From an uncultured cyanobacterium (GTDB lineage Bacteria > Cyanobacteriota > Cyanobacteriia > Phormidesmidales > Phormidesmidaceae): a stretch of 64,000 nt of DNA. Under the pieces are notes generated by a model. The model was not told the DNA's origin, ran no database searches, and worked only from the letters and a program-made list of their open reading frames with translations. Positions 3,379 to 51,090 of the stretch are shown here, in pieces (position 1 is the stretch's first letter; every line of letters starts with the position of its first letter). The position numbers and the translations under genes were made by a program. The DNA lies in assembly GCA_963793265.1 (NCBI GenBank), contig CAWBZI010000002.1, forward strand, positions 32,001 to 96,000. The letters are read 5' to 3'.

Positions 3379-3422
3379 TACGCTCATAGTCTTTAGAATA
3401 TCTCTTACCTCTTCCTTATTTT

Positions 3423-34002: not shown

Positions 34003-34677
34003 TTAAGTTGCAAGAAACACACCGCCCGCGCCGCAGGCAATCAGTCCGGCGGCGCGAACCCAAGCTAGCTTTTTAATTGAGGTTGACCGTTCGCGAGCTA
34101 TCCAAAAGGCACCAGCCATGATAGCCCCTTGCGCGGCGGTAAAGCCGATTAGATAAGAGAACAGTGGCGTCATTTCAGCGCCGACAATGGCCTCGCCGTA
34201 AGCATAGCCATGAAATACGCCAGTTGCTGCGCTGAGTAAAACAGCAGTGCCCGCAGTCAGCTTCCTGCTGTAAGCGGTCAAGATGCCAATAAGAACAACC
34301 GATAGAGAGATGAAAAATTCAGATGCGGGCAGATTTAATCCTATGAGGTGAAGACCCGCGCCTACCAGGCTAGTAGCCAAGAAAGCAGCAGGAACTGTCC
34401 AGCCCAGTTTAACTCTGGTAGCTAAAAGACCAGTGACGATTATAAAAACAAGATGATCTATGCCAATAACCGGATGGCCTACGCCCGAGAGAAAGCCTTG
34501 CCCCCACGTGCTGGGTGTGGTGCCGCCGAATGGATGATGGGCTAAGGCGGGCGCGGCTAGTGAGAGTGTTAAAATGCTGGTAACAAGAGGAATCGCAATC
34601 CGTATTCTCTGATTGCAAGCGCTGTCGATCTTCAGCGAAGAGAACGTCATCATGGCTGGAGCATTTCTTGTTTTCAT
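34003..34677 (-). CDS. HupE/UreJ-family Ni/Co permease
   Basis: ALAHHP, GVGHPVIGIDHL, FHGYAYG. Confidence 0.92.
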   Translation of the reverse strand: MKTRNAPAMMTFSSLKIDSACNQRIRIAIPLVTSILTLSLAAPALAHHPFGGTTPSTWGQGFLSGVGHPVIGIDHLVFIIVTGLLATRVKLGWTVPAAFLATSLVGAGLHLIGLNLPASEFFISLSVVLIGILTAYSRKLTAGTAVLLSAATGVFHGYAYGEAIVGAEMTPLFSYLIGFTAAQGAIMAGAFWIARERSTSIKKLAWVRAAGLIACGAGGVFLAT

Positions 34678-34722
34678 GGCTTTAGATGGTTTCTAAATAC
34701 TGTTGGTTTTGAGCCTGTGCTG

Positions 34723-35079
34723 CTACGCGGCGGCTGATTTGCAGTCCAGAATCTGAGCAAGCTGCGTTTCTAACTCGCCCGATTCGATCACGCCGGAGGC
34801 GACGACAATTCTCTCTAAAGCCGTTAGCCAGCACTGATAATAGTCCCATTCCGGGTCATTTAATTCGTGCGTATCTTCCCACTCTTTGATAGTGGCCATT
34901 AGAGTTTGGCGAAAGTCTTCCCATTCGTAATAGCCTTGTTTAGAGAGCGAGATCGCCACTCCAAAGGCCATTTTTTCCCACGCTCTGTCAAACTGCAAGT
35001 GACCGTCCTGACGCGGCGGCGCTTCTTCAGGTGAGCCCATCAAGCTAGTTGCGGCAAAGTGCTCGAACTTAGTAAACAT
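34723..35079 (-). CDS. Nitrile hydratase accessory (activator) protein
   Basis: PPR..G.L.F...WE..AFG.A, WEDFRQ.L, YYQCWLTALER; follows nthA. Confidence 0.9.
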   Translation of the reverse strand: MFTKFEHFAATSLMGSPEEAPPRQDGHLQFDRAWEKMAFGVAISLSKQGYYEWEDFRQTLMATIKEWEDTHELNDPEWDYYQCWLTALERIVVASGVIESGELETQLAQILDCKSAAA

Positions 35080-35108
35080 ATTCTTAAAAAAACCTACTTC
35101 AGGATGTC

Positions 35109-35735
35109 CTATACTTTTACGACAGCTACGCCCATCATGGCCTCGGGCGTTATCAGCGCTGCTAAGTCTGCTTCACTCATGCCATCTGTTCCTTCTGGGC
35201 GCATCGGCAGCACCCACCAGCGAATCTGAGCGCTGGTATCCCAAATCCGAATTTCAACAGAATCGTCTAGCTTTACGCCAAATTCCGAGAGCACCACGCG
35301 CGGTTCTCTGGCAACCCGCGCCCTAAACGTCGGATCTTTAAACCAGTAGGGTGGCAGTCCTAGCGTAGGCCAAGGGTAGCAAGAACACAGGGTACATACA
35401 ATTACGTTGTGCACCGCTGGCGTGTTTTCAGCAATCCGCATGTGCTCGCCTTCTGCCCCTGACATGCCGTTTGGAAAGCCCAATTCCTCGCAGGCCGCAT
35501 TGCAGTCGGCAAGCAAACGCGCCTTAAAATCAGGATCTACCCAGGCTTTAGCGACGAGCTTAGCACCGTTAAATGGCCCCATTTTGGTTTCAAAGTGGCT
35601 CAGCACGGTGTCAACCGTCTTGCCTGTAAGAATGCCTTTTTCAATTAGCAAAGACTCTAGAGCTTTTACCTTTGCCTCGCTGGTTTTCTCGCGGTCTGCT
35701 GCTGGATACTTAAATCCAGGATAGTTACTGGGCAT
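35109..35735 (-). CDS. nthA: Nitrile hydratase alpha subunit, cobalt type
   Basis: VCTLCSCYPW metal motif (Thr/Tyr indicates Co-type), GAKLVAKAWVDP, LGLPP.W.K. Confidence 0.95.
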   Translation of the reverse strand: MPSNYPGFKYPAADREKTSEAKVKALESLLIEKGILTGKTVDTVLSHFETKMGPFNGAKLVAKAWVDPDFKARLLADCNAACEELGFPNGMSGAEGEHMRIAENTPAVHNVIVCTLCSCYPWPTLGLPPYWFKDPTFRARVAREPRVVLSEFGVKLDDSVEIRIWDTSAQIRWWVLPMRPEGTDGMSEADLAALITPEAMMGVAVVKV

Positions 35736-35748
35736 AAGATTCTCTCTC

Positions 35749-36483
35749 CTAAAGCGCTTCTATGTACACTTCAAAAATGTCGTTGTAATAGACCATGTTC
35801 GAATCGGTCACTGTTTCCTCCCAAATATCTGTCGCCTTAATTGCGACGCTGTAAACGGGCATTGGCTCGCCCAAGCCATCTGTTGTGGGAAAAAAGTACG
35901 TGAATGCACCGTCGTATACTTTGACAATTTCGGCAACTTTGCCTCTGATGTGTCCGGGCAATCGGGTGTGTTCGCCTGAAGCGACGTTTTTGATTCTGAC
36001 GCGATCGCCTACTCCAAACTTAGGCTCACTATCCAAAGGCCGCTGCGGCGAATCCCCTTTCTCTAGGTACTTCACAATCTGCTCGTCGATAGCGCTCGCT
36101 TCTTTGTCTACTTGAACCTCGCTGCCCGAGAGATACGCCGCAGTCCTCTCATCTAGCTCAGCCTGCGTCATATAGCCTTCTCCGACAAAAAAGCCAGAAA
36201 TACCGCCCAGCCACTTTTCATAGTAGCGCAGCCGAAAGTACTCAAAAGGGTGCATTCCCTCAGCGCCCATGCGCAAGTGCCCCCAAGTCCAGAAGCTTTT
36301 GAACTCAGTAGGCACCTCATCAATTTTGTAGTCAGGAATGGAGTTGTCGAGATGGTTGCTGAGCGCCATCATCGCCGTATGAATGCCGAAAATGCGCTCT
36401 TCCCAAGGCTCAACAAACACTCTAGTTTCAAAGTTAACAGGATCGAGATTTTCTATACCCCCGATGTTGTGCTGTATTTTCAT
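35749..36483 (-). CDS. nthB: Nitrile hydratase beta subunit
   Basis: F.EPWE.R.F, R.GAE, YYEKWL, F.VGDRVR, HTRLPG.IRGK. Confidence 0.93.
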   Translation of the reverse strand: MKIQHNIGGIENLDPVNFETRVFVEPWEERIFGIHTAMMALSNHLDNSIPDYKIDEVPTEFKSFWTWGHLRMGAEGMHPFEYFRLRYYEKWLGGISGFFVGEGYMTQAELDERTAAYLSGSEVQVDKEASAIDEQIVKYLEKGDSPQRPLDSEPKFGVGDRVRIKNVASGEHTRLPGHIRGKVAEIVKVYDGAFTYFFPTTDGLGEPMPVYSVAIKATDIWEETVTDSNMVYYNDIFEVYIEAL

Positions 36484-36519
36484 AGTTCTTTTGGTATTGA
36501 AAGAGAGAATTGATTTTTT

Positions 36520-36549
36520 GTAGGGTGCATAGCAGTGCTATGCCCCTAC
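36520..36549. repeat. GTAG-type REP-like palindrome
   Basis: GTAGGGTGCATAGCAGTGCTATGCCCCTAC; same family as 63694-63774. Confidence 0.7.
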
Positions 36550-36592
36550 TCCGATATATTCTAGGTAAGGTTGTTCATTGTTGTTAGAATCT

Positions 36593-37573
36593 CTAAGCGT
36601 ATTCCAAAGCCTTTGCAAAGCAGCTCTGGAAACCTCTACGTAGCTCTGTTTCATCCAGATTTCGGCCAATAAATATCAGCTCATTCTGCCGAGCCTCACC
36701 TACTTTCCAAGGTTTTCCAGGCCGACCGTCTAGGGTCATATGCACCCCTTGAAACACAAATCGCCGGGGTTCATTGTCAGCATCTACGATGCCTTTCATT
36801 CGGAATATATCAGCGCCTTTTGCCTGCACTAGCTGGTAGAGCCAGCGGTTGAGCCGATCGCTATCTACCGAGCCCGCTTCTGTGATGGCAACAGAATGAA
36901 TAGTGCTGTCGTGGTCGTGCGCGTCTTCGTTGAGCAGCTCTGGATCGATGCTAAGCGCCTGCTGTAGATCGAAGGCTCCAACGCCGAGGATCTTATCTAA
37001 CGCAATGTTGCAGTTTTGCGTAGGGTGAATGGTAGAGATCGCATTCAGTCCTCTTACTTTCAAAGCCAGCGCCGCCAGCCGATCCGAGGAAATTAAATCT
37101 ATCTTGTTTAACAAAACAACATCGGCAAAAGCAATCTGCTCCTGCGCCTCACTGCTTCCCCAATGCGCGTCAATGTATTTAGCATCTATCACCGTAACCA
37201 CCGCATCTAGCTGCGTTTGCTTGGCCATTACCTCATCGACAAAAAATGACTGAATCACCGGAGCCGGATCGGCGAGGCCCGTCGTTTCAATCACGAGATG
37301 ATCGAAGCGATCGCCTCTGGCTATTAAATCGCTAATAATCCGAATCAGATCGCCCCTCACGGTACAGCAAATGCAGCCATTGTTCATTTCAAAAATCTCT
37401 TCATCGGCATCAATCACCAGTTGATGGTCGATGCCTACTTCTCCAAATTCATTGACAATCACCGCAATCTTTTTACCGTGTTCTTCAGTTAAGATGCGAT
37501 TTAATAGTGTTGTTTTGCCTGCTCCTAAGTATCCGGTGAGCACTGTAACCGGAATCTTTTGAGTCAATGCCAT
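36593..37573 (-). CDS. COG0523/CobW-family metallochaperone GTPase
   Basis: [37 protein letters not shown]...FQGVH. Confidence 0.93.
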
Positions 37574-37628
37574 AGTAATACCCTTCTTTATTCGTAACAG
37601 ATTTTAAAGCGACAGTTTATAGCCCCTG

Positions 37629-38138
37629 TTAAACGCCGGGCGAAACTGACGTAGTGGTCATGGCCTTTCCCCAGGCTTCTGAGAGGTAGCCAAAAATAGC
37701 GCCCAGGATCATAGCTGCGATCGCAATCAAAATAGGATTATTCGGCAGCGCTGCGGTCACCGGCAAACCCGTCACCGCGACCGTTCCAACCGTCTGCGAA
37801 AACCCCCACACAATTGCAGGCGTAATACCATGAGTGAAAGGCAGCTTTGAGGCCTGAACCATCGCTGCGCTGCCGATGCCAACGCAAATAGCTGCAACTA
37901 TCGGACTGCTGCCAATTAAATCTATTGCCAGTAAAGATAGCGCGGCGATGACGATGCCTGTAATATTGCAGGCAACCGACTTGACGAAGCCTCGCTTACC
38001 CCCACCCACAACAAAGAAAGAAGCCCAAGCGGTAAACGTCACCCAGACCGGGACAAGAATAACGGTGGCCGTTAGCAAAACATCGACGCCACCTAGCACA
38101 CCAATACTAACGGTTAGAGCCTCAGATTGTTTCATCAC
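37629..38138 (-). CDS. DUF1097-like membrane protein
   Basis: PVWVTFTAWASFFVVGG, TPAIVWGF, GAIFGYLSE; all hydrophobic. Confidence 0.75.
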   Translation of the reverse strand: MMKQSEALTVSIGVLGGVDVLLTATVILVPVWVTFTAWASFFVVGGGKRGFVKSVACNITGIVIAALSLLAIDLIGSSPIVAAICVGIGSAAMVQASKLPFTHGITPAIVWGFSQTVGTVAVTGLPVTAALPNNPILIAIAAMILGAIFGYLSEAWGKAMTTTSVSPGV

Positions 38139-38394
38139 ACAGTTCCTTTTGTAGTTCCCTTTAATAGTCTCTTCGGAATTTTACTGGAAAGTTTTGCCTG
38201 AGAATAAAGACTTTCCTTACTGTTATGCACGACTTTATCACTCTTTCAAACAGAAAACAGTCTCTTTCAACACATTCTGTTTACTCAAGCCGTTACTCGG
38301 CTAGGGTTCAATACTATCTCTACAAAGTCCGATAAAAGAAATATATGAGTCAAATTAAAATCGCTATCTGTGAAACCACCTTAAGATAGATATC

Positions 38395-38410
38395 TGTATA
38401 TCTACTTACA
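38395..38410. promoter_or_regulatory. NtcA-binding site (perfect consensus)
   Basis: TGTA-TATCTACT-TACA = GTA-N8-TAC, in the divergent intergenic region. Confidence 0.75.
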
Positions 38411-38467
38411 GTTACAGCGTGGGTGGCGTGGATTAAATAGGGCAAATCGAAAGGAGTTCTCTCAGTT

Positions 38468-40069
38468 ATGAAACCAATTGTGATATCGCGTTATTCCTGG
38501 CTAAGAAGAGTTTCTATTGCCTGCGCGCTAACGCTTTCTACTACATTTGTTGCCAGTTGCTCTGGGCCGTCTTCAGTCTCAGAAGTCAGTACGACATCGG
38601 GCGAGACTGCTAGCGCTGAGTCTTTAGATGGCGAAACTATTCGTATCTCTATCGGAACTCAAGACCAAGTTATCAATACCGCTGTAGGCGGTGCCACTGT
38701 TAGAGAGTTAGATTTGTTAGAAAAGTATCTGCCTACAACCGGCAAATATGAGGGCGTGAAGTACGATATTGAGTGGTCTAGCTATACGTCCGGGCCACCT
38801 ATTACTAATAAAATGCTGGCCAACCAGATTGATATTGGCTTGATGGGAGACTTTCCTGCCGTTATCAATCTAATCAAGTTTCAAGAGGAAGTAGAAGGCG
38901 TCACCTCAACTTTTATTGGCACGCTAGCCTACAGTCCTAACGGTGCTGGGAACGCGGTAGTCGTTCCGAAAGATAGCGAAGTCACTTCTTTAGCCGATTT
39001 GAAAGGGGGGGCGGTATCAGTTCCCTTTGGTTCTGCCGCGCACGGCATGGTGCTAAAGGCGCTTACTGACGCAGGGATTGATCCAGAAACCGATGTAGAG
39101 CTAATTAGCCAAGCCCCAGAAGTAGGCGGCACTAGCCTTCGCACGGGGCAAATCGATGCCCATGCCGATTTTGTTCCCTTTGGCGAACTATTTCCATATA
39201 GAGGCTTTGCTAAAAAGATTTTTGACGGTGCACAAACTGGCGTGCCTACTCTACACGGAATTGTTGTTCGCTCCGACTTTAGCGAGAAATATCCAGAGAT
39301 TGTAGAAGCTTATCTCCAGGCGATGCTTGAAGCCAATCAGATGTTTCGAGATAATCCAGAAGAGATCTCTGCCCAAATTGAGGAGTGGTCTGGGATTGAG
39401 AAAGAAGTGGTGTACATGTTTTTAGGCCCTTCTGGTTTGCAGCCAATTAACCCTAGCATTGAGGAGGTTCAACTGTCGGCTCTAAAAAACAGTATTGCTA
39501 CGCTTATTAGCCTTGGGAAAATTGAATCGCCTGTCGATCCAGAGGATGTTACAGGATGGGTAGATGACGGCTTCTTAAAAGCTGCGATGGAAAACTCGGG
39601 GTTAGACTACGATGCAGTCATTGAAGAAGGTGAAAGCTATTTCATTACCGGACAAGATGCGCTGACAGGAGATGACATTGCAGAACCCAAGATGGCCGCT
39701 CAGCTATGGATTCAAGAAGAACCTACGGTGAGTAATTTTGCCTCTGTCCCTAACATGGTGACAAAGCTGAATGAGCTACAGGATGAGGGCAAAGCCGCCG
39801 ACGTGATTTTTGTACATGATCGTAACAAAGGATGGAAGCTGTTTGCGGAAAACGCTTACTATGTCACCAGCGGCGATGAGGTTTCTGCCTTTTTGCTAGA
39901 AGCTGACGCTACCGCGTTTGCATCTGAGTCTGGCGGGCAAGTTGTCTCTTTTAAGGATTTGCTCAAAACATACTCTGTTAGCGGCCCTCAGCCATCGCGC
40001 GTTAGTCGCATTACAGCAGATAACTTGCGACAGGCACTAAAGAAGGTCGTTCCTGCGCTGGCAGGATAG
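38468..40069 (+). CDS. NitT/TauT (SsuA-like) ABC substrate-binding lipoprotein with a C-terminal extension
   Basis: Lipobox VASC; TSGPP, DIGLMGDFP, VPFGSAAH. Confidence 0.88.
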   Translation: MKPIVISRYSWLRRVSIACALTLSTTFVASCSGPSSVSEVSTTSGETASAESLDGETIRISIGTQDQVINTAVGGATVRELDLLEKYLPTTGKYEGVKYDIEWSSYTSGPPITNKMLANQIDIGLMGDFPAVINLIKFQEEVEGVTSTFIGTLAYSPNGAGNAVVVPKDSEVTSLADLKGGAVSVPFGSAAHGMVLKALTDAGIDPETDVELISQAPEVGGTSLRTGQIDAHADFVPFGELFPYRGFAKKIFDGAQTGVPTLHGIVVRSDFSEKYPEIVEAYLQAMLEANQMFRDNPEEISAQIEEWSGIEKEVVYMFLGPSGLQPINPSIEEVQLSALKNSIATLISLGKIESPVDPEDVTGWVDDGFLKAAMENSGLDYDAVIEEGESYFITGQDALTGDDIAEPKMAAQLWIQEEPTVSNFASVPNMVTKLNELQDEGKAADVIFVHDRNKGWKLFAENAYYVTSGDEVSAFLLEADATAFASESGGQVVSFKDLLKTYSVSGPQPSRVSRITADNLRQALKKVVPALAG

Positions 40070-40248
40070 ATAGAAGAGATCTTGTTTGATACGCTTTGAT
40101 GAATACTTTTGCTACTTAGTCAGCACAACCTATCAAGCTTTTCTATTCGAGCCACAAAGCAATCTAAACTTAAGGACTGCTGTTTGAATAGATAAGCGCT
40201 TCGCACTTTTCCACCTTTTCCACGGATTCTTTTTCAAAGGTTTCTTCA

Positions 40249-41133
40249 ATGACAAACATCATCCCTACCAGCGGCGATGGCGAAATTACTCCCGTAGACT
40301 ATCGCGCGACTACCCAAAAACCCTCTAGGCTACTTCGCTTTCTACCAGCCAACTTATCTTCAAACCGCCCTGCCATGCGGCTATTGTCATTGGTTCTCTT
40401 TTTTGGCATCTGGCAATTTTTGTGCGTTATTGGCTTCGATTTCTTTATAAACTTTCAGCTAGTTCCCTCTCCAATGGAAGTTTCTAAAGCTACAGTTGAT
40501 TTTTTTCTAGACGCTCCGGGCGTACACATTCGCTCTAGTATTGTTCGGGTGCTAGCAGGTTTTGTCTTTGCCTCGGCCTTTGGTATTGTGATGGGAATGT
40601 TTATCGGCTGGTTTCAGCTAGCTGAAGACCTGATGATGCCTTGGCTAGAGCTGCTAAGACCGATTCCAGCAGTCGCGTGGATTCCGCTGGCAATTTTAAT
40701 CTTTCCAACTGCTGAAACGGGGATGATTTATATCACTTTTATCGGCGCGTTTTTTCCAGTTTTAATTAGCACCATTCGCGCGGTTGAAAACATCCTGCAT
40801 GACGTTGTGTTAATTCGCGTAGGCCAGTGCTTAGGTGCTAAACAATGGCATATATTTAAAGACATCGTGATACCGGGTTCGTTACCAGGTATTGCAGGCG
40901 GCTTAACTATTGGCATGGGAAATGCCTGGTTTTGCCTAGTTACCGCTGAGATTTTGGCAGGGCGATATGGCGTGGGCTACATCACTTGGGAGTCGTATGT
41001 AACCTCTAACTATCCGCCGATTGTGATGGGCATGTTATTGATTGGTCTGATGGGCGCGTTTAGCGCATGGGCAGTTGAGCGCGGAATGCAGGCCCTGATG
41101 CCTTGGCGAGTGATTAAAAAACAGAATGCGTAG
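40249..41133 (+). CDS. NitT/TauT ABC permease
   Basis: LRPIPAVAWIPLAI, LVTAE, GVGY. Confidence 0.92.
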   Translation: MTNIIPTSGDGEITPVDYRATTQKPSRLLRFLPANLSSNRPAMRLLSLVLFFGIWQFLCVIGFDFFINFQLVPSPMEVSKATVDFFLDAPGVHIRSSIVRVLAGFVFASAFGIVMGMFIGWFQLAEDLMMPWLELLRPIPAVAWIPLAILIFPTAETGMIYITFIGAFFPVLISTIRAVENILHDVVLIRVGQCLGAKQWHIFKDIVIPGSLPGIAGGLTIGMGNAWFCLVTAEILAGRYGVGYITWESYVTSNYPPIVMGMLLIGLMGAFSAWAVERGMQALMPWRVIKKQNA

Positions 41134-41226
41134 GTTAGGTTGAGCCCCAACCATCAACAGCCGTGCCCCGCCATCCCACCCGCGCGAAACCTAACATCTA
41201 TCAACACAACCGCAGGAGCGATCGCA

Positions 41227-42051
41227 ATGATTCAAAAAACACCTCCTAAGTTAAAAGCACCTGTAGAGCCAACTAAAGGCTCTGTGCAGGTAGAAGGGGT
41301 TTCGATGATCTTTGGGAAAAAAGGCCGAACAGCTCAGGTGCTAGACTCCGTTAATTTTCAAGTGAAGCCGGGTGAGTTTGTTTGTCTTTTGGGGCCTTCA
41401 GGCTGCGGAAAATCGACGCTGCTCAATATTATCGCTGGCTTTATCAAACCCTCAGCGGGCTATGTAATGGTAGATCGAAATCAGGTAGTCAAGCCAGGTG
41501 CGGATAGAGGTTTCGTTTTTCAGCAATACTCACTGCTGCCTTGGAAAACAACGTTTCAAAATGTGGAACTAGGTCTTAGAATCAAAGGAATGCCGAAGGC
41601 TGAACGAGAGGATATAGTCGGCGAATATTTAAACCTAGTTGGGCTAGGCAAGCATCGCGATGCGTATCCAGCGCAGCTCTCTGGCGGGATGAAACAGCGG
41701 GCAAGTATTGTTCGCGCATTGGTTAATTCGCCATCGGTGTTGCTGATGGATGAACCGTTTGCCGCGCTAGACGCGCAGACCCGACAGATGATGCAAGAAC
41801 TGCTGTTAAATATCTGGGAAACGCTGAAGACGACGATTGTATTTGTTACTCACGATATTGAAGAAGCGGTGTTTTTAGGCGATCGCATCTTCGTTATGGG
41901 CGTACAGCCAGGGCGCATCAAAGCCGAGATACCCATCTCTTTGAAACGGCCTCGCCATGTTGATGATATGCTTGCGCCAGAATTTACTCAGCTAAATCGG
42001 CAGGTCTTCAGTCTGATTCGAGAAGAAACGCTCAAAAGCATGGAGATATAA
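41227..42051 (+). CDS. NitT/TauT ABC ATPase
   Basis: GPSGCGKST, LSGGMKQR, LMDEPFAALD, VTHD; GCAGGAG RBS before 41227. Confidence 0.93.
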   Translation: MIQKTPPKLKAPVEPTKGSVQVEGVSMIFGKKGRTAQVLDSVNFQVKPGEFVCLLGPSGCGKSTLLNIIAGFIKPSAGYVMVDRNQVVKPGADRGFVFQQYSLLPWKTTFQNVELGLRIKGMPKAEREDIVGEYLNLVGLGKHRDAYPAQLSGGMKQRASIVRALVNSPSVLLMDEPFAALDAQTRQMMQELLLNIWETLKTTIVFVTHDIEEAVFLGDRIFVMGVQPGRIKAEIPISLKRPRHVDDMLAPEFTQLNRQVFSLIREETLKSMEI

Positions 42052-42133
42052 AAGGTTCTGTTACTTGTTCGCGAGAGAAGCAACCGGCTGCGAGCTTGAG
42101 ATCACTCAATGAGAGCAGCTTTAATACATTCTT

Positions 42134-44242
42134 CTACAGCGCAGACAAAGCCCTTTCCAAAAGCTCCGGCTGTATCCAGGTATCTAAGTTCAATTCACCT
42201 AACGCCTCGTTGCCTGCAATGGCTGAAAGCTGCTCGATATGCTCTGCAACCCAGTCCGTACGGATTTGGGTATCTGGGAAAAATAAACCTGTGCTATCCG
42301 AGCGCTGATGCGCCAGAGTTTTTATAACAATCTCGGGAGCGATTCCTGCCCAAGTACTCACCAAAGAAAGCGCGCTTGGCGTTGTCTCGTACCAATACTG
42401 TGCCGCTATGAGCGCCTTTAGGTAGGCAGTTACTAGCTCAGGGTGTTCCTCAGCTAGCGCTTCTCTGACCACAACGCCGTGGAACGTCGGCAGTCTATCG
42501 GCGTCACCCTCTAGCAAGCGCCGAAACTGTCCCTTATGGCTAGCGATATCGTGCAGCGGTGCAAAATATGCATAGCCATCGGCTTGTGGGTTGCGTGGCG
42601 TTAGCCGATGAATACTCAGATTATCAATAGAGGTAAGTGTCACCTCTGGCAGTAGATCTGCCCGCGCTAGCGATCGCATAATCATGCCGTGAGCCGCAGA
42701 GGCGAAAGGCACAGCGATTATCCGGTCGCGCAGGTCATCCCAACTCACCAGTGAAGAGCGATTGGGCACAATCACCGTATTCCCGGCACCGTCGGGGTTA
42801 CTAGCAATAAAGCTAACTAGCCGAGTTTTGGTCAGGTGCGTTTTTGACTGAGACAATTCTGTAGAGAAACTTTGTGAGTCTGTTGCTGAAGGCAGACCGC
42901 TGAGTAGTAGAGGATAGTCTCCCAATATGCCAATATCTAGCTGGTCAGACTGTAGCCCAGCGACAATGGGTGCTCCCGATGTAAAGTCGCGCCACTGAAC
43001 CTGATATTCAGCGCCCTGATATCGCCCACACCGAGGTAGAAAGTGTTCGAGCAGCCCTAAATGTTGAATGATTAAGCCTGCCGTTACCGTTTGAATGGTT
43101 CTATTTTGGGTGCCGATTGCGATCCTTAGCGTTTCAGATTTACGCTCGTCAGATCCGATATGCCTATGGTATGAGGTCTTAGAATGTACGGATGTCTGCC
43201 AGCGAACAGGTAGCTTAGGCGCTATCTGGGGGATCAAACCAGATTTTTTACCCTTGGTTGGAGAAGTTAATTTTTGACGGCGGCTGTATCCTGTTCTCTC
43301 GTAGACGAGCTGAACGAACTGCTGTAATGGTTTTTGAAAGCTACGCGTTTGAGACTGATAGTCGCGTTTGCCCTGTTGCTGGGGGTGCAGCATAAACAGC
43401 TCAAAATTCAGCGGGAATTCTTGTAGCGAAATTGCGGTGAGTATTTTGGCTTTTCGCTCCATCTGAAACTGGAAGCTAGATGCAAATCCCAGATAGTGCC
43501 CCTGACTGAGGAAGGTACTCATCAAACTAGGAGATTGTACAATCTCGCGGTTGGGAAAATCGGATAGCTGCAAACCCAGTTCGCTGAGCCGACTGGCTAG
43601 CACCATCGAGTCCGGCGTGGAAGCTTCTGGCAGTGCCCAAACTTCCTCAGTCAGTTCTCGCAGGCTTAACCACTCGCGAGTAGCCAACCGATGATCGGCT
43701 GCTACTACTAAAGAGTACTGAAAGCTATCAACCGGAATAGCCTCTATTGCTTCAAAGTCTTTTGTGTTATCCGAAAAGATATTTTCTGTAGCAAGCGATT
43801 CAGAGAAAGCAGCGTCAATATCGCCTGCTGCAACTGCCTGATAGATGTCTTGCACTGTTCTAAATGACACGCATTGCAAATTAACCTCAGGATACTTCTG
43901 CCGGTAGGCAAATACAATTTTGGGCAACCATCCGCTGGCAATATTTGGCGTACAGCCAATCTTTAGCTGGTTAAACTTCCTTTGTTTTATGGCTTCAATT
44001 TCTTTAGTTAGACGGCATTCTAAATCAATCAAACTAGGCCCAGCATTTAGCAAATAGTTTCCTGCTGCCGTAAGCTCTATTTTGCGACCAAGGCGGTTAA
44101 ACAAATCGGTTGATAGGCTTACCTCTAAAGACTTTATCTTAGCGCTGACTGCGGGCTGAGTCAGGCTGAGTTCGTCAGCAGCTTCTGTAAAGCTAAGCCG
44201 ACGAGCTACTGCTAAAAAAACCCTGAGCTGGTAGATTTCCAT
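42134..44242 (-). CDS. LysR-family regulator fused to a C-terminal SsuA-like binding domain
   Basis: N-terminal LysR HTH (SFTEAADELSLTQPAVS) and effector domain, then ~330 aa paralogous to the 38468 binding protein. Confidence 0.88.
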   Translation of the reverse strand: MEIYQLRVFLAVARRLSFTEAADELSLTQPAVSAKIKSLEVSLSTDLFNRLGRKIELTAAGNYLLNAGPSLIDLECRLTKEIEAIKQRKFNQLKIGCTPNIASGWLPKIVFAYRQKYPEVNLQCVSFRTVQDIYQAVAAGDIDAAFSESLATENIFSDNTKDFEAIEAIPVDSFQYSLVVAADHRLATREWLSLRELTEEVWALPEASTPDSMVLASRLSELGLQLSDFPNREIVQSPSLMSTFLSQGHYLGFASSFQFQMERKAKILTAISLQEFPLNFELFMLHPQQQGKRDYQSQTRSFQKPLQQFVQLVYERTGYSRRQKLTSPTKGKKSGLIPQIAPKLPVRWQTSVHSKTSYHRHIGSDERKSETLRIAIGTQNRTIQTVTAGLIIQHLGLLEHFLPRCGRYQGAEYQVQWRDFTSGAPIVAGLQSDQLDIGILGDYPLLLSGLPSATDSQSFSTELSQSKTHLTKTRLVSFIASNPDGAGNTVIVPNRSSLVSWDDLRDRIIAVPFASAAHGMIMRSLARADLLPEVTLTSIDNLSIHRLTPRNPQADGYAYFAPLHDIASHKGQFRRLLEGDADRLPTFHGVVVREALAEEHPELVTAYLKALIAAQYWYETTPSALSLVSTWAGIAPEIVIKTLAHQRSDSTGLFFPDTQIRTDWVAEHIEQLSAIAGNEALGELNLDTWIQPELLERALSAL

Positions 44243-44488
44243 GGCGTGATCGCGAGCATTACAGCAACGCTTTAAGGGAACCTAAACAAACTGTAAACTG
44301 GCTTGAGATTGACTCACAAATAAGCCTCTACTTTGTCGGGAAAACAAAGCTTTTACTTATCAACATGCTTTGATAAAAATGGCTTGCCAATGATAGTCAC
44401 TTCAGCAGCCTATAGCTTCCACTGCTGTAAAAACTAGACTTGCTATTATCTGTTTTTATGAGTGTATAAGATAGATTGATTGCTAAAC

Positions 44489-44504
44489 TGTGCGTTTTGA
44501 TACA
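44489..44504. promoter_or_regulatory. NtcA-like site (GTG variant)
   Basis: TGTG-CGTTTTGA-TACA = GTG-N8-TAC, between the LysR and flavoprotein genes. Confidence 0.5.
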
Positions 44505-44774
44505 CATCGTATAGGGTTTATTGCTGAGTCTATTAACATAGTCACATAAGAAATAAATCAGATTTGTTGTTCCAAGATTCCCTTGTCATCTATATCCAAT
44601 GCGTAGCTTCGCAAGCAACCTTTGTGTTTTTCGCTTCGATCCTTTGAAGAATTTGGAACTACAGAGATCGAGATTGTGTAGATCGAAATAGTCAAGAATC
44701 TGAGTTCTACAGTCGAGCTAAGCACTTCGTTTTGTTAAGGCCCGTATAGCCACCCTTACAACTGAGGATTTTGT

Positions 44775-46478
44775 GTGAATATTCAGCATCTACAAACAGA
44801 TTTTTTGGTGATTGGCGGCGGTACCGCAGGTACGATGGCTGGCATTAAAGCCAAGCAGGCTAATCCCGAGGCAGACGTGCTGATTCTAGAGAAAGCGAAC
44901 ATTCGCCGGAGTGGCGCGATCGCAATGGGTATGGACGGGGTTAACACCGCTGTTATTCCTGGTAACTCTACTCCTGAGCAGTACGTTCGAGAAATTACCA
45001 TCGCCAATGACGGCATTCTCAATCAAAAGTCGGTTTATCAAACCGGACGCTGGGGCTTTGAGGTGATTCAAGAGCTAGAAAGCTGGGGCGTAAAGTTTCA
45101 AAAAGACCGCGAAGGTAATTACGATCTTAAGCAGGTACACCGCGTAGGTAAGTATGTGCTTCCTATGCCCGAAGGCAAGGATCTCAAAAAGATTCTTGCT
45201 CGCCAGGTAAAACGCCATAAAGTGAGCGTTACCAACCGCGTTATGGCCACTCGCGTCATGGTAAAAGAGGGTCGCGCTATTGGAGCTGTCGGCTTTGACA
45301 CGCGCAAAGGAGACTTTGTGGTGATTCAAGCTAAGGCGGTAGTGCTCTGCACCGGAGCCTGTGGAAGACTGGGCCTACCCGCTTCAGGCTATCTGTATGG
45401 CACCTATGAGAACCCTACCAACGCGGGCGATGGCTACTCTATGGCTTACCACGCAGGAGCCGAACTCACAAATATTGAATGCTTCCAAATTAACCCCTTA
45501 ATTAAAGACTACAACGGCCCAGCCTGCGCCTACGTTGCTAGCCCCTTTGGAGCCTACACCGCTAATGCCGAGGGCAACCGCTTCATTAACTGCGACTATT
45601 GGAGCGGTCAAATGATGCTGGAAACCTGGAAAGAATTAAACTCAGGCAAAGGGCCGGTACACCTCAAGATGTATCATCTAGACGACGATACCATCTCAGA
45701 GATTGAGCGGGTATTGTGGGCTAACGAACGGCCTAGCCGCGAGCGGTTCCACGAAGGCCGAAAGCAGGACTATCGAAAACATGGCGTCGAGATGAATATC
45801 TCGGAGATCGGGCTTTGCAGCGGTCATAGTGCCTCCGGGGTTTGGGTAAATGAGAGGGCAGAAACAACAATACCCGGTCTGTATGCCGCTGGCGATATGG
45901 CCAGCGTACCGCATAACTATATGATTGGAGCCTTTGTCTCTGGGCGACTTTCAGGCATCAACGCCATGGACTACATTCAGACACTAGAGCATGTAGAGCC
46001 CGATGAGGATTTCCTTGCTGCGGAGAAAGCTCGCATTTACGCACCGCTGAGTCGCCCGGACGGGGTTCCACACACTCAGGTGGAATATAAGCTGCGTCGC
46101 TATGTGAATGACTATCTTCAGCCGCCAAAGTCTCCTACCAATATGGATATTGGTCTGGCTGCTTTTGAGAACTATCATGAAAGCTTAGACATGATGGGTG
46201 CAACAGACCCGCACGAGCTGATGCGCTGCATGGAAGTTCACTTTATTCGTGACTGCGCGGAGATGGCTGCTAGGGCTTCTCTTTACCGAAAAGAGAGCAG
46301 ATGGGGCCTGTATCACTATCGACTAGACTATCCTGAAAAGAATGATGAGGAGTGGTTTTGTCATGCGAACTTGAAGAAGAGCGCAACAGGCAATATGGAA
46401 ATGTTTAAGCGGGCAGTGGAGCCTTATATTGTGGACGTAAATATGGAGCAGGAGGTTTACGATGTGGCGGTAAGGTAA
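44775..46478 (+). CDS. Fumarate reductase/SDH-superfamily flavoprotein, AprA-like
   Basis: GGGTAG FAD motif, RSGAIAMG..VN, TNAGDG, GLYAAGD, RKESRWGLYHYRLDYP. Confidence 0.88.
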   Translation: MNIQHLQTDFLVIGGGTAGTMAGIKAKQANPEADVLILEKANIRRSGAIAMGMDGVNTAVIPGNSTPEQYVREITIANDGILNQKSVYQTGRWGFEVIQELESWGVKFQKDREGNYDLKQVHRVGKYVLPMPEGKDLKKILARQVKRHKVSVTNRVMATRVMVKEGRAIGAVGFDTRKGDFVVIQAKAVVLCTGACGRLGLPASGYLYGTYENPTNAGDGYSMAYHAGAELTNIECFQINPLIKDYNGPACAYVASPFGAYTANAEGNRFINCDYWSGQMMLETWKELNSGKGPVHLKMYHLDDDTISEIERVLWANERPSRERFHEGRKQDYRKHGVEMNISEIGLCSGHSASGVWVNERAETTIPGLYAAGDMASVPHNYMIGAFVSGRLSGINAMDYIQTLEHVEPDEDFLAAEKARIYAPLSRPDGVPHTQVEYKLRRYVNDYLQPPKSPTNMDIGLAAFENYHESLDMMGATDPHELMRCMEVHFIRDCAEMAARASLYRKESRWGLYHYRLDYPEKNDEEWFCHANLKKSATGNMEMFKRAVEPYIVDVNMEQEVYDVAVR

Positions 46479-46575
46479 TCGCCCGCTCTACGAAGAAATG
46501 CCAGTGCTCTTCATTCTCTGACTCACGCCCCTAGCTCGCACCCAAGCCTCTTAACCTTCATTCAAAACTCTCCTT

Positions 46576-46803
46576 ATGGCCTTAGCAACTCAGCGCGTCG
46601 ATGTTCCCGTTATTGTAGACGAATCTAAATGTCTTGAAAAATGCGTTGCCTGCATTGAGGTATGCCCGCTTGACGTCTTAGTGAAGAATCCAGAAACCGG
46701 CAAAGCCTACATGAAATACGACGAATGTTGGTTCTGCCTTCCTTGCGAAAAAGAATGTCCTACCAATGCCATCACCGTTCAAATTCCGTTTCTGTTGCGC
46801 TAA
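46576..46803 (+). CDS. 2x[4Fe-4S] ferredoxin, AprB-like
   Basis: CLEKCVACIEVCP and CWFCLPCEKECP. Confidence 0.92.
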   Translation: MALATQRVDVPVIVDESKCLEKCVACIEVCPLDVLVKNPETGKAYMKYDECWFCLPCEKECPTNAITVQIPFLLR

Positions 46804-46818
46804 GGAAAAGCTTCGACC

Positions 46819-47808
46819 ATGACTACAGATATCACTACCAGTCTCGATCCTGAAGTCGCGCAGTGGGTAGATATGTTGAGATCACAAGACCTCAGCGATC
46901 GCCTCGTTGCTGCTAAAGCGCTTCAGCACATGGGTGACGAGGACACCATTAACGCTCTTATTGATGTTCTTGATGATGAGAGCCCTGCGGTACAAGAAAT
47001 TGCTATTACAGCTCTATGGGAGATGGCAAACCCAGTTGTGGTCAAACCTTTGCTGAAATGCCTGGGCTCGGATCGCGAAGAAGCCGTCAGAGGAGAAGCA
47101 CTCTCTGCGCTAAAAGAGATTATCTCCCCAGACGATCTGCTCACGCTACTAGACGCAATTCATATAGACGATGAACAGATGCAGCTTAATGTGCTGATTC
47201 TACTACGAAAAATTCACGACGCCCAAGCACTTGCCTATGTTCTACCGTTCTTTAAGTCGGATAGTTCCGCCCTCAGAGAAGCGTCAATAGTCACCCTACG
47301 CTATCTTAATCAGGTCGTGCGCTGCGAGCCTGCTCTAGCGCTGACCAAAGACCCAGTTGAACAGGTTCGTCGTTCGGCAATGCTGACACTTGGCCACTTA
47401 ACCGACGATGCGGTAGTGCCTCTACTTTGCGAAGCGGCAACTGCTGATTTTGACTGGCAAGTGCGCCGTAACGCGGCCCAAGCTTTGGATCTTCACCACA
47501 CAACAGCCGCCCTGCCCGCGCTTATTAAGGCTATGGGAGACGAACATTGGCAGGTTCGTAAGTTTGCGGCTCGCGCCTTGCAAGCTGTTGCGAACCAGAC
47601 TGCCATACCCTGCATGATTAAAGCCCTTTCAGATGAATATTCTGATGTTCGGAAAGAAGCTGCGATCGCACTCGGAAAAATCGGCCATTCTGACGCCCTA
47701 CCCGCCCTACAGCAAACGCTAGACGACCCTGATAGGGACGTGCAAATCTTCTCTGGGCGCGCCATCCAATCTATTCAGAAGCAGCTAGCGGAAGTGCCCA
47801 ATGCCTAA
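46819..47808 (+). CDS. HEAT/PBS-lyase repeat protein
   Basis: Repeated D...VR..AA.ALG.I units. Confidence 0.9.
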   Translation: MTTDITTSLDPEVAQWVDMLRSQDLSDRLVAAKALQHMGDEDTINALIDVLDDESPAVQEIAITALWEMANPVVVKPLLKCLGSDREEAVRGEALSALKEIISPDDLLTLLDAIHIDDEQMQLNVLILLRKIHDAQALAYVLPFFKSDSSALREASIVTLRYLNQVVRCEPALALTKDPVEQVRRSAMLTLGHLTDDAVVPLLCEAATADFDWQVRRNAAQALDLHHTTAALPALIKAMGDEHWQVRKFAARALQAVANQTAIPCMIKALSDEYSDVRKEAAIALGKIGHSDALPALQQTLDDPDRDVQIFSGRAIQSIQKQLAEVPNA

Positions 47809-48904
47809 TCATCCCTCTCCTTTGGTTTCTAACACCTATTCAGTGCCCGACGCTGCACCTGAAAATCTTGCTATAGAAGCCAGAAAACAACAGGTGACGG
47901 CGTACCTTAGAAAAGTCATTGAACCCACGCTTAACAACAATATTGTCGAACTGGGTATGGTTCGCAATCTACGCGTGACTGATGACTACGTTTATCTGAA
48001 ATTATATATTGGGGCTCATCAACACTTTCTTCAAGATGAAGCCCAGCGGGTTTTAGACAATCTGAGCTGGTGTAAGAAAGCCTATATTCAGCTTTGCACA
48101 ATTCCGGGCGTGCGCACAACGCTGGCCATTTCTAGCGGTAAAGGCGGCGTAGGCAAATCTACAACGGCGGTGAACCTGGCCGCTGCACTGACTAAAGCCG
48201 GAGCAAAAGTGGGCGTTCTAGATGCGGATATCTATGGCCCTAATGTCCCTCAGATGCTGGGATTAGGCCATGCCGAGGTAGAAGTTGTAGAGACAGCCCA
48301 AGGAAAAAGGTTTAAGCCGTTGGAGGCTCATGGTATCAAGGTGATGTCGGTGGGTTTGCTAGCCGGGCCTGACCACCCGCTGGCTTGGCGAGGGCCTGTG
48401 TTGCATAAAATTATCACACAGTTTATTCAAGAGGTGGATTGGGGGGAGCTAGATTATCTTTTAATTGATCTGCCGCCAGGGACAGGCGATGCTCAAATCA
48501 CAATTATTCAAGAGAGTCCTATATGCGGGGTGGTGATGGTGACAACGCCGCAGCAGGTTGCGGTATCTGACGTGCGGCGCAGCATTTATATGTTCCATCA
48601 GGTAGGGGTACCCGTGTTAGGAATGGTAGAGAATATGAGCTATTTAATCTGTGAATGCTGTGGCGATCGCACGTCTATTTTTGGCGAGGGCGGCGGCGAG
48701 CAGATAGCCAAAGAGCTGTCTGTTCCACTCTTGGGAAAAGTGCCAATCGACTCCAAAATTTGTCAGGGCGGTGATGATGGAAAACCGCTTCCGCTAGTAG
48801 ACGAAGCGGCACCGCTTTCCGTTGTCTTTGGCGCGATCGCCGCAGGCATCAATCAAACCTTTACGCCTAGCCTATTAAACCTGTCGTCTACGGCATCAGG
48901 CTAG
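47801..48904 (+). CDS. Mrp/ApbC Fe-S cluster carrier ATPase with N-terminal DUF59-like domain
   Basis: SGKGGVGKST, DADIYGP, WRGP, DLPPGTGD, ENMS..CECC. Confidence 0.92.
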   Translation: MPNHPSPLVSNTYSVPDAAPENLAIEARKQQVTAYLRKVIEPTLNNNIVELGMVRNLRVTDDYVYLKLYIGAHQHFLQDEAQRVLDNLSWCKKAYIQLCTIPGVRTTLAISSGKGGVGKSTTAVNLAAALTKAGAKVGVLDADIYGPNVPQMLGLGHAEVEVVETAQGKRFKPLEAHGIKVMSVGLLAGPDHPLAWRGPVLHKIITQFIQEVDWGELDYLLIDLPPGTGDAQITIIQESPICGVVMVTTPQQVAVSDVRRSIYMFHQVGVPVLGMVENMSYLICECCGDRTSIFGEGGGEQIAKELSVPLLGKVPIDSKICQGGDDGKPLPLVDEAAPLSVVFGAIAAGINQTFTPSLLNLSSTASG

Positions 48905-48946
48905 GCTTCGTTCGGCTAAAGCTTGAAGTGAGATCAACCATTTGTA

Positions 48947-49963
48947 GTGCTACAGAGAATGAAGTCTTCAGGAGAATCTGAATTTAATTTAGCGATTCAA
49001 AAAGCGTTGCATCGTTCGGTAACAATACACTTCACGCTCCAACAAGTGCTATTTTTGAGCATTGCAAGCTGCTCCCTAACGCCTTGGGTTTCACCGCCCA
49101 TCGCTCTAACATCAGGAATGGGAGTGGCCTTGACCATTCAGAATCCTTTCCTGCACACCAGCCGATGGCTCGCTCGCCAGCTTTTACAGCTCTGCGTTAT
49201 CCTGCTCGGCTTTGGCATGGATTTAGCGATTGTGCTGCAAGCAGGTCAAACGGGCGCTACATTTGCGGCAATCAGTATTGGCATGACGTTAGCAATAGGG
49301 TACTGGCTTGGAGCGTGGCTCAAAATCCCAGTGAAGATTTCTATCTTAATTTCGGCAGGCACAGCAATCTGTGGCGGTTCTGCGATCGCAGCAGTCGCGA
49401 CCGTCGTTGGTGCGGCAGAGCAAGAGATTTCGATCGCAATAGGCACCGTTTTCTTACTCAATGCCGCAGCGCTCTACATTTTTCCGCTGCTGGGGCACGG
49501 TTTGCATCTATCTCCAGACCAGTTTGGTATTTGGGCAGGCATTGCTATTCACGATATTTCTAGCGTTGTCGGTGCTGCGTCGTATTTTGATACAGCGTCG
49601 TTGGATATCGCAACGGCGGTTAAACTCTCTCGGACGCTCTGGATTGTTCCTATCTCGCTCATTTTTTCATTTCTGTTTCAGCGCCAGCAGACTCGACGCA
49701 CAAGAGTACGTATCCCCTGGTTTATTGGTTTATTTCTATTGGCATCGCTCGCAAGGACGTTTGTGCCGAACGTCGTAAACTGGTCGCCTGCGCTAACGCA
49801 ATTTTCAGAAGCTGGATTGAAGCTGACATTATTTTTGATTGGAACAGGACTATCGCTACAGGCACTAAAGGCAGTGGGTTGGCGGCCCATTGCTCAAGGA
49901 ATAGTGCTATGGGTTGTTATCAGTATTAGCTCTCTTGGCACGATTTTGCAGTTAGTCCGCTGA
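48947..49963 (+). CDS. YeiH/putative sulfate exporter (PSE) family
   Basis: GTAICGGSAIAA, WAGIAIHDISSVVGA, VKLSRTLWIVP. Confidence 0.9.
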   Translation: MLQRMKSSGESEFNLAIQKALHRSVTIHFTLQQVLFLSIASCSLTPWVSPPIALTSGMGVALTIQNPFLHTSRWLARQLLQLCVILLGFGMDLAIVLQAGQTGATFAAISIGMTLAIGYWLGAWLKIPVKISILISAGTAICGGSAIAAVATVVGAAEQEISIAIGTVFLLNAAALYIFPLLGHGLHLSPDQFGIWAGIAIHDISSVVGAASYFDTASLDIATAVKLSRTLWIVPISLIFSFLFQRQQTRRTRVRIPWFIGLFLLASLARTFVPNVVNWSPALTQFSEAGLKLTLFLIGTGLSLQALKAVGWRPIAQGIVLWVVISISSLGTILQLVR

Positions 49964-50123
49964 GCAGTATGGGTAACAATGCTGCTTGAGTTATTCGCGC
50001 TTGAACTGAGCTTCAAATTCTCGATAGCTCTCTACTTTGCTATCCTACTCTTGAAACGCTTCTTTCACTATTGAGCAAAGTTAAGCAAAAAAGCGCTCAC
50101 ATAAATTTTGACCCCTTCTACTT

Positions 50124-50849
50124 ATGTCCACAGAATTAATTATTGTTTTGACCGTGGGCGTCGCTTCTTTTGTTCGAGGCGTTACTGGCTTCGGAGCCGC
50201 GCTAATTGCTATGCCGATTGTCTCTGGACTTACCGGCGTTTACACGGCGGCTCCTCTTATGGCAATCATTGGCCTGACTAACGATACGTTGCTATGTCTT
50301 TACTACCGACGTTCTTTTAACTGGGGCATCGTCGCCCATCTATGGATAGGGTCAGCTTTAGGTATCCCTGTTGGTTTTTTGATATTACGGGTTTTCCCAG
50401 GCGACTCTATGCTTTCAGCACTAGGTATTGTGATAGCGGCCTATGCTATCTATGCTTTGTTTGATCCGGTAATGCCTATTTTGAAGTCACGTCAGTGGGT
50501 ATATGCCACTGGTTTTTTGTGCGGTGCTTTGGGCAGCAGCTATAACTTACCAGGGCCACCGGTTATTTTGTATGGCAACAGCCAGCGATGGAGCCAGGAC
50601 AAGTTTAAAAGCAATCTTAGTATTTTCTTTTTGGGAAATGCTGTTTTGGTCGTGTTGGGCCATGTTGCTCAAGATAGGTTTTCTAGCGCTATTTTGCACC
50701 AATATATTATTGCAGTCCCCAGCATAGCGATTGGGCTATTTTCAGGTATTGTCCTCTCAAAATTTTTTAATCCGGTGCTATTTAGGAAAGTTGTCTTAGT
50801 GCTTCTAGTTGCAATCGGCATTCAACTGTTTCTTATAGAGCCCATTTAG
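50124..50849 (+). CDS. TauE/SafE sulfite/sulfonate exporter family
   Basis: FVRGVTGFGAALIAMP, GIPVG, PGPPV; about 8 TM segments. Confidence 0.88.
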   Translation: MSTELIIVLTVGVASFVRGVTGFGAALIAMPIVSGLTGVYTAAPLMAIIGLTNDTLLCLYYRRSFNWGIVAHLWIGSALGIPVGFLILRVFPGDSMLSALGIVIAAYAIYALFDPVMPILKSRQWVYATGFLCGALGSSYNLPGPPVILYGNSQRWSQDKFKSNLSIFFLGNAVLVVLGHVAQDRFSSAILHQYIIAVPSIAIGLFSGIVLSKFFNPVLFRKVVLVLLVAIGIQLFLIEPI

Positions 50850-50899: not shown

Positions 50900-51090
50900 A
50901 TGGCCTATTCGAGCAGTCTGCCAGATTTGGAGTGGGAAGTTCTAGAACCGCTGCTGCCAAGCGTGTTGCCTCAGAAGAAGGTTACCGCCCCGACGAAGTA
51001 GAGTAAGCGCGACATCATAGATGGCTCTTCTACTAGCTGAAGAACGGCTGCAATTGGGAAGACCTGCCGGAAGACTTGCCACCGTATTCA
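50900..51090 (+). mobile_element. IS5-family transposase N-terminal remnant
   Basis: MAYSSSLPDLEWEVLEPLLP...*SKRDIIDG, then a frameshift to LKNGCNWEDLPEDLPPYS. Confidence 0.8.

Follow-up and report, generated by a model that had tools for sequence, protein, structure and literature searches.

The best match in sequence and fold to the flavoprotein treated here is the AprAB-type phosphoadenosine phosphosulfate (PAPS) reductase of Methanothermococcus thermolithotrophicus (8a8o), a reductase releasing sulfite (PMC10322725; this and the other cited papers are used for the accessible parts of their text), along with the dissimilatory adenosine phosphosulfate (APS) reductase AprAB (1jnr, 2fja). A flavoprotein, a ferredoxin and a binding protein are also found in the AsfAB arylsulfonate system (asfRABC) of Pseudomonas putida S-313, which acts on sulfonates, is sulfur-controlled and works with SsuD (PMC4267179, PMC2864759). 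Taurine and cysteate pathways for nitrogen or carbon export the sulfur oxyanion via TauE or Pse when it is in surplus (PMC10413263, PMC6370202). Cobalt nitrile hydratases of Geobacillus/Aeribacillus (2dpp) and Pseudonocardia (1ire) combine two subunits, the motif VCTLCSCY, an accessory protein and a cobalt transporter, and the thiocyanate hydrolase ScnABC (2dd4) shares superfamily and cobalt motif. The locus compared with these systems comprises sixteen contiguous genes at 34003..50849 of a 64-kb window, the whole stretch of DNA read, on contig CAWBZI010000002.1 of an uncultured cyanobacterium (Phormidesmidaceae), filamentous to judge by its nearest relatives. With a probability of roughly 0.6, it consists of two nitrogen-scavenging modules that are independent of each other but have a single divergent promoter region under NtcA control in common: module A (34003-38138) would be a mobile cobalt nitrile hydratase kit with its own cobalt supply, and module B (38468-50849) an importer with a flavin/iron-sulfur enzyme and exporters. 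The apparent novelty is nitrogen control of this flavoenzyme module, combined with sulfur export, in two phyla.

Module B differs from AprAB in its 75-residue partner, its own ABC importer, a HEAT protein, a regulator, nitrogen-type promoters and aerobic hosts. From the taurine and cysteate pathways it is set apart by a cassette without transaminase, dehydrogenase or sulfo-lyase and by a binding protein without the taurine amine ligands. Module A departs from the nitrile hydratases 2dpp and 1ire by a divergent beta subunit, the company of CobW and DUF1097 and an operon without amidase. No description of the flavoprotein or of the pathway was found in a literature search, which left most subscription papers and supplements outside. 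All 16 open reading frames were uninterrupted, and Pfam and NCBIfam agreed with the family names given in an earlier note on this DNA, which had described an intact sixteen-gene block bracketed by IS256 and IS5 remnants; both remnants are present, left and right. The features are:

33257..33740 (approximate ends), plus strand: IS256-like transposase remnant, internally deleted and interrupted, from translation
34003..34677, minus strand: HupE/UreJ Ni/Co transporter of the nitrile hydratase module (PF04955)
34723..35079, minus strand: nitrile hydratase accessory protein (TIGR03889, 76 bits, cut-off 46)
35109..35735, minus strand: NthA, cobalt-type nitrile hydratase alpha subunit, VCTLCSCYPW (TIGR01323, 290, cut-off 250; PDB comparison)
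35749..36483, minus strand: NthB, divergent beta subunit (TIGR03888, 200, cut-off 152)
36593..37573, minus strand: CobW/COG0523 metallochaperone GTPase (PF02492 and PF07683)
37629..38138, minus strand: DUF1097 membrane protein, a usual member of the nitrile hydratase module (PF06496)
38396..38409, strand not applicable: perfect GTA-N8-TAC box for NtcA within the divergent spacer, 72 bases upstream of the importer start
38468..40069, plus strand: TauA/SsuA-type binding protein with C-terminal NosL-like domain, below all curated family cut-offs
40249..41133, plus strand: ABC permease (Pfam/NCBIfam)
41140..42051, plus strand: ABC ATPase (Pfam/NCBIfam)
42134..44242, minus strand: LysR regulator fused to a binding-protein domain, the latter 34% identical to the 38468 protein
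44490..44503, strand not applicable: NtcA-like site with one mismatch, GTG-N8-TAC, between the LysR and flavoprotein genes
44775..46478, plus strand: PRK08275-family flavoprotein (NCBIfam NF006131 (PRK08275), 999, cut-off 587)
46576..46803, plus strand: 75-residue 2x[4Fe-4S] ferredoxin, a short AprB-like partner
46819..47808, plus strand: HEAT-repeat protein, matching the C-terminal region of the fused PRK13800 flavoproteins
47801..48904, plus strand: Mrp/ApbC iron-sulfur cluster carrier (PF10609)
48947..49963, plus strand: YeiH/PSE putative sulfur-oxyanion exporter (PF03601)
50124..50849, plus strand: TauE/SafE exporter (PF01925)
50900..51090 (approximate ends), plus strand: IS5-like transposase remnant, frameshifted, from translation

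Separation of the two modules

The earlier note had joined both halves of the locus into a single pathway, in which a substrate with a nitrile group and sulfur, e.g., a cyano-sulfonate, would be taken up, lose its sulfur through the flavoenzyme and be hydrated by the nitrile hydratase. The neighbourhood survey that it called for revealed a linkage that is mostly absent. Cassette genes of module B occurred at none of 23 GTDB loci with an NthB 63-78% identical to that of the window (17 with at least 8 kb upstream; a single-protein query that covers close relatives only) and at two of the best 80 of 353 metagenome NthB loci, 32 of which span at least 8 kb. Of 150 family genomes, 82 held the flavoprotein and 58 an NthB orthologue, three genomes with weak nitrile hydratase matches only not being counted as holders; 44 genomes held both, 38 the flavoprotein only and 14 NthB only. 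The distance between flavoprotein and nitrile hydratase was at most 10 kb in three of the 44 (G103, G120, G062) and 41 kb to 4.8 Mb on the same contig in five others; the remainder had them on separate contigs and is uninformative. The phylum sample of 250 genomes yielded 14 with the flavoprotein, complete nitrogen-type cassettes among them, three with the NthB clade and none with both. Among 401 Proteobacteria, 20 genomes held the flavoprotein; nth genes were found at none of these 20 cassette loci and the NthB clade of the window in none of ten cassette genomes tested. Named plasmids carry either module alone; pAQ4 of PCC 7002, for one, has the nitrile hydratase but no flavoprotein cassette. 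The nitrogen-type cassette is present in Pseudanabaena galeata CCNP1313, a non-diazotrophic cyanobacterium. Importer and flavoprotein are inseparable: 69 of the 70 family genomes with the binding protein also hold the flavoprotein. Since the modules are rarely adjacent even where both are present and no genome of the phylum sample holds both, they are mostly two separable modules and not one obligatory pathway, and a place of the nitrile hydratase as a step of the flavoenzyme pathway is not supported.

The survey also supplied what speaks for a common pathway. Both modules face the single NtcA box at 38396, the co-occurrence within the family (44 of 58 NthB genomes) is above random, and G120, G062 and L142 have a different NthB lineage within the cassette, in the same orientation as the importer; in G103 it follows the cassette directly. 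The adjacent cases from named groups all belong to the genus of the window and have a different NthB clade and a gene of the FGE family in place of DUF1097. Because these relatives differ in NthB clade and gene order, the junction of modules A and B appears to have formed at least twice in one genus. Genes for allophanate-hydrolase-like, formamidase, biuret-hydrolase-like and cyanase proteins recur next to the module B cassette as well, and a repeated gathering of NtcA-controlled modules is the simplest account of such junctions. The nitrile hydratase module joins cyanate operons (at three of the metagenome loci inspected, again the best 80 of 353) and a cluster of a split-beta nitrile hydratase, a biuret-hydrolase-like gene and another importer (11 of the 23 GTDB loci) more often than it joins module B. 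Cyanase co-occurs about equally strongly with either module, the block lacks an amidase gene, and 38 of 82 flavoprotein genomes do without this NthB, 14 of 58 NthB genomes without the flavoprotein. A single pathway for a nitrile-bearing sulfur compound is thus regarded as improbable.

Probable nitrogen control and sulfur export of module B

With the consensus GTA-N8-TAC (PMC3898017), the site at 38396-38409 is the only perfect NtcA box in the 329-base divergent spacer. A perfect box stands before the importer in all 18 cyanobacterial copies, the window included; in the other 17 loci, where shuffled sequences would give 2.1, it lies 40-82 bases upstream of the predicted start of the importer, and the genome-wide rate is 0.15 perfect boxes per kb. 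The spacing from the box to a TAAAT-like element is conserved among the importer promoters. Ahead of the flavoprotein, a looser NtcA-like site was present at 20 of 23 loci with this importer/LysR fusion, a raw count without shuffle baseline. By comparison, genes for SsuA-type binding proteins had a perfect box in 4 of 18 cases, at scattered positions. In the 20 proteobacterial loci (400 kb) a strict sigma-54 motif matched nine times, seven times directly before a cassette gene; these seven of 20 copies are L223-L229. A full NtrC site was absent before the sigma-54 motif in six of these seven loci, with one loose match. Nitrogen control, in line with the scavenging proposed in the earlier note, is supported by the NtcA boxes and the sigma-54 motifs.

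The grouping of the loci rested on binding protein, regulator or promoter and left the exporters out of account; the loci span only 12-26 kb and two were unassigned. YeiH or TauE accompanied 15 of the 24 cyanobacterial loci with this importer/LysR fusion and none of the 13 loci with an SsuA-type binding protein, and the proteobacterial copies repeated this pattern with YeiH in five of seven sigma-54 loci and in none of 13 others. The sulfur export of the earlier note is thus retained for the nitrogen-controlled versions only. MetX, MetY or TauD showed the opposite distribution (0/24 versus 9/13). The 13 SsuA-type loci are surrounded by sulfur-starvation genes, i.e., SsuA, TauD, MetX/MetY and flavin monooxygenases, and Cupriavidus is alike. 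The YeiH of the window shares 30-39% identity with most of the YeiH proteins encoded next to other cassettes, its TauE 22-30% with the TauE copies there; with only 22-39% identity to most others, the exporters were recruited more than once. In the tree, two sulfur-context enzymes nest inside the nitrogen-context branch, so the setting changes while the enzyme stays the same; none of the alignment columns separating the two groups is a mapped catalytic position.

Nitrogen-controlled import is paired with sulfur export and sulfur-controlled import with sulfur retention, which suggests a substrate that contains both elements, as the earlier note had supposed and as is probable from control and exporters together. 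If module B acted on a nitrogen-free sulfur compound, either an alkanesulfonate or sulfite oxidised in reverse, NtcA and sigma-54 control would serve redox or sulfite handling rather than nitrogen gain. The sulfur-starvation neighbours of the 13 cyanobacterial loci and of Cupriavidus would be explained in this way, as would the sulfonate-type binding site described below. However, a nitrogen-free substrate offers no reason for the pairing of nitrogen-controlled import and sulfur export seen in two phyla, and no carbon-catabolic genes travel with the cassette; we consider it unlikely. Several observations weigh against nitrogen control of a single substrate with nitrogen and sulfur. Nine of the 24 nitrogen-type loci have no exporter nearby, the genomes are related, so that the counts overstate independence, and the sulfur-context loci, which have another binding protein, could import another substrate. 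Nor is sigma-54 a nitrogen-specific factor. Of the 18 importer promoters, only one has a canonical TAN3T -10 box some 22 bases downstream of the NtcA box, the others having the TAAAT-like element at that spacing.

Flavoprotein, ligand site and substrate

The flavoprotein is a PRK08275 member and a relative of the alpha subunit of PAPS/APS reductases with a remodelled active site. Its best solved match is the PAPS reductase 8a8o (E 3.5e-71; Foldseek rank 1, 28% identity). The predicted structure (mean pLDDT 60.7, residues 195-354 below 50) was used for fold ranking only, since at this confidence it is uninformative on active-site geometry. The AprAB-like flavoenzyme of the earlier note holds with regard to fold, FAD subunit and the arrangement with a 2x[4Fe-4S] partner, whereas the AprA family models (TIGR02061, 184 versus 642; PRK06854, 318 versus 557) and the catalytic set speak against an AprA. 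We take the catalytic set of AprA to be Asn74, Arg265, His398, Trp234 and Glu141 in the numbering of A. fulgidus. By alignment, Asn74 and His398 are kept as N57 and H351. Arg265, Glu141, Gln145, Trp234 and Gly274 are replaced by Leu242, Val124, Val128, Tyr211 and Cys251, so that the nucleotide pocket is remodelled and the sulfite-binding set kept only in part; Gln145 is named for the AprAB-type PAPS reductase (PMC10322725). Invariant in 43 of 43 homologues are Leu242, Cys251, Cys348, His122, Arg319 and Arg322. The loss of Arg265 to Leu in all of them and the two invariant cysteines in pocket-forming segments leave sulfite-adduct chemistry not assured, and the N5-sulfite adduct that the earlier note had carried over from AprA is not simply transferable.

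The family comprises at least 6,576 sequence clusters, annotated as fumarate/succinate dehydrogenase subunit without a substrate. The neighbourhood of flavoprotein and HEAT gene, with ferredoxin and importer, is kept in both phyla. Most of the L221-L229 cassettes also encode ferredoxin-NADP reductase, a regulator of the Crp/Fnr type and DUF971 (GBBH-like N-terminal), which occupy the place of the cyanobacterial Mrp and LysR fusion. PA2296-PA2299 is presumably the Pseudomonas copy. An identity with AsfAB was rejected at 27% identity (E 5e-9) to the AsfA candidate on the megaplasmid of C. metallidurans CH34; the comparison was made with this unannotated flavoprotein-ferredoxin pair, inferred to be the AsfAB of PMC2864759, and not with the P. 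putida protein.

The binding protein is nearest to TauA/SsuA (E 1e-16), nitrate/bicarbonate proteins being far weaker (E 1e-4), and scores 78 against the TauA model TIGR01729 (cut-off 304). In TauA, the sulfonate is held by Gln30, Gly61, Gly79 and the Thr132 loop and the amine by Glu106 and Asp205 (PMC6906117). The sulfonate site aligns with Q65, G109, G127 and S189/A190 of the binding protein, and the amine ligands are replaced by Asn162 and His263, invariant in 34 of 34 sequences and likewise replaced in the LysR sensor domain. Taurine is therefore disfavoured as ligand. With the sulfonate residues kept and the amine-holding acids replaced, the site fits a small sulfonyl anion that bears a neutral polar group, and the LysR fusion is a probable cytoplasmic sensor of the ligand. 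Residues 407-500 of the binding protein form a NosL-like domain (PF05573, E 8.5e-7), apparently without the copper-binding Cys/Met. A sulfotransferase-family gene lies inside the importer operon in three other loci (L064:7105-8133, L070:4857-5903, L142:6619-7689).

In the proposed mechanism, nitrogen limitation would switch on the importer through NtcA, and a small anion with both nitrogen and sulfur would enter and be sensed inside the cell by the LysR fusion. The 2x[4Fe-4S] ferredoxin would feed electrons to the flavoprotein, with Mrp supplying the clusters and the HEAT protein as partner, and the flavoprotein would break the bond to sulfur in one step. The nitrogen product would be assimilated and the surplus sulfur oxyanion leave via YeiH/TauE; in other organisms the same enzyme would act under sulfur control, without exporters, and keep the sulfur. 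As the cassette holds one catalytic enzyme, nitrogen has to be released in usable form within a single step; this favours an N-S bond and hence sulfamate. Flavoprotein, ferredoxin and HEAT protein could then form a ferredoxin-dependent N-S bond reductase that converts sulfamate or an N-sulfonate to ammonia or an amine and sulfite, a tentative assignment. Sulfamate alone (H2N-SO3- + 2 electrons -> ammonia + sulfite) is a possible first choice among the N-sulfonates. No described enzyme for this reaction was found in the literature search. Sulfamate is burdened by the loss of Arg265, by its reported persistence and proposed use as a conservative wastewater tracer (PMC5292994), and by acesulfame degraders that do not use it (PMC10413263); natural sulfamate may also be too scarce for a family of this size. 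It further leaves unexplained that cyanase tracks the nitrogen-type proteobacterial copies (10/10 versus 4/10).

This last pattern would follow if module B used thiocyanate. The flavoenzyme would split SCN- into cyanate and reduced sulfur, the pocket cysteines taking the sulfane sulfur; nitrogen would be gained by cyanase, not by the nitrile hydratase, and sulfur would be exported after oxidation in the nitrogen-type loci or fixed by MetY in the sulfur-type loci. Cyanase was present in all seven sigma-54-type genomes and all three further genomes of the Crp type or the alphaproteobacterial branch, compared with four of ten GntR-only genomes and a background of 64 in 401, although lineage confounds this association. 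Cyanase is almost ubiquitous in the cyanobacterial family (119 of 150 genomes; 63 of 70 with the importer versus 52 of 58 with NthB) and so uninformative. A cyanase operon is directly next to the cassette in G003, 15 kb from it in G012 and about 24 kb beyond it in the window genome, but the genome with the closest cassette, G097 (96% complete), shows no cyanase, and the gene is stated to be an unreliable marker (PMC6504805). Thiocyanate chemistry would also fit the lost Arg265, the invariant C251 and C348 and the MetY genes that adjoin many sulfur-type copies, and Ralstonia and Methylobacterium, named as users of thiocyanate nitrogen (PMC5328954), hold the flavoenzyme on plasmids. Yet a tetrahedral sulfonate site is retained in the binding protein, which is much closer to TauA/SsuA, and a low-potential ferredoxin with ferredoxin-NADP reductase suits reduction, whereas the known cyanate-forming cleavage needs high-potential acceptors. 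Thiocyanate is thus judged a distinctly unlikely substrate, and an N-sulfonate remains the reading preferred here.

Module A, its surroundings and implications of module B

NthA, NthB and the accessory protein form a two-subunit cobalt nitrile hydratase according to family models and motif, with VCTLCSCY in alpha and an intact beta subunit. NthB represents a clade of 1,442 sequence clusters without solved structure (best PDB match E 1e-22). A thiocyanate hydrolase was rejected, as the score against TIGR03887 (194) stayed below the cut-off of 291; moreover, unlike in ScnABC (2dd4), beta is a single unsplit chain of 244 residues and CSCYP is followed by Trp (CSCYPW) instead of Arg, which we take to be Arg136 of the thiocyanate hydrolase gamma subunit. 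NthA of the window scored higher against the variant 3vyg than against wild-type 2dd4, and the Arg-bearing paralogue of L021 behaved oppositely. The DUF1097 gene adjoins nthB in 51 of the 80 metagenome loci, and an ESM Atlas query with its protein returned only DUF1097 clusters. Proteobacterial copies of this nitrile hydratase adjoin a DJ-1/AraC regulator. Since the module joins cyanate operons elsewhere, a small nitrile or cyano compound is suggested as substrate. Perfect NtcA-like boxes upstream of nitrile hydratase modules (six of 26, 2.3 expected, besides many with one mismatch) argue weakly for NtcA control of these modules in general.

Further nitrile hydratases were noted around module A. 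The split-beta cobalt enzyme that adjoins it (L006-L015 and L021, e.g., L012:1050-7040) diverges from the biuret-hydrolase-like gene, an SsuA-family importer and an AsnC regulator; as a guess, this cluster could serve a cyanamide- or dicyanamide-type compound. A third enzyme of the family (L021:12572-16902) has, like thiocyanate hydrolase, Arg after CSCYP, besides a fused divergent beta and its own importer and scores below both NCBIfam cut-offs. An FGE-sulfatase-family gene precedes the nitrile hydratase genes, mostly replacing DUF1097, in L064:8314-9237, L066:11125-12159, L069:5633-6577, L071:3643-4644, L145 and L156; a role in oxidising the site cysteines of nitrile hydratase is conceivable. 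An amidase-signature gene at 56020-57501, 5 kb past the block and beyond the IS5 remnant and a DevBCA-type exporter, is a possible yet unlinked partner for the nitrile hydratase product.

The flanking remnants, which we presume to be IS256-like and IS5-like from their translations without a family scan, do not form a composite transposon, since they are of different families and have no full second copy in the genome. Both are broken, and the only genomic repeat of either is one match of 52 bases. The base composition of the block is unremarkable. At 229-7469 the window encodes two large proteins that carry RTX repeats along with nuclease/phosphatase and glycerophosphodiesterase/phytase-like domains, suggestive of phosphorus scavenging. 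Beyond the window (G000:C2:106300-110200), a cyanate importer and cyanase operon has two one-mismatch NtcA-like sites.

For module B, a large uncharacterised APS-reductase-like family appears wired to nitrogen control and sulfur export in two phyla, and its substrate thereby becomes testable, as the pattern of promoters and exporters narrows it to a small compound with nitrogen and sulfur. Sulfamate, if true, would mean a new flavin chemistry and matter for a compound regarded as a conservative tracer of wastewater, and thiocyanate would fill a gap in heterotrophic thiocyanate use. Either one would be an unrecognised nitrogen source for many filamentous cyanobacteria, the flavoprotein being present in 82 of the 150 family genomes. 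If the N-S bond reductase reading is true, it points to an overlooked natural nutrient that supplies nitrogen and sulfur to bacteria of at least two phyla.

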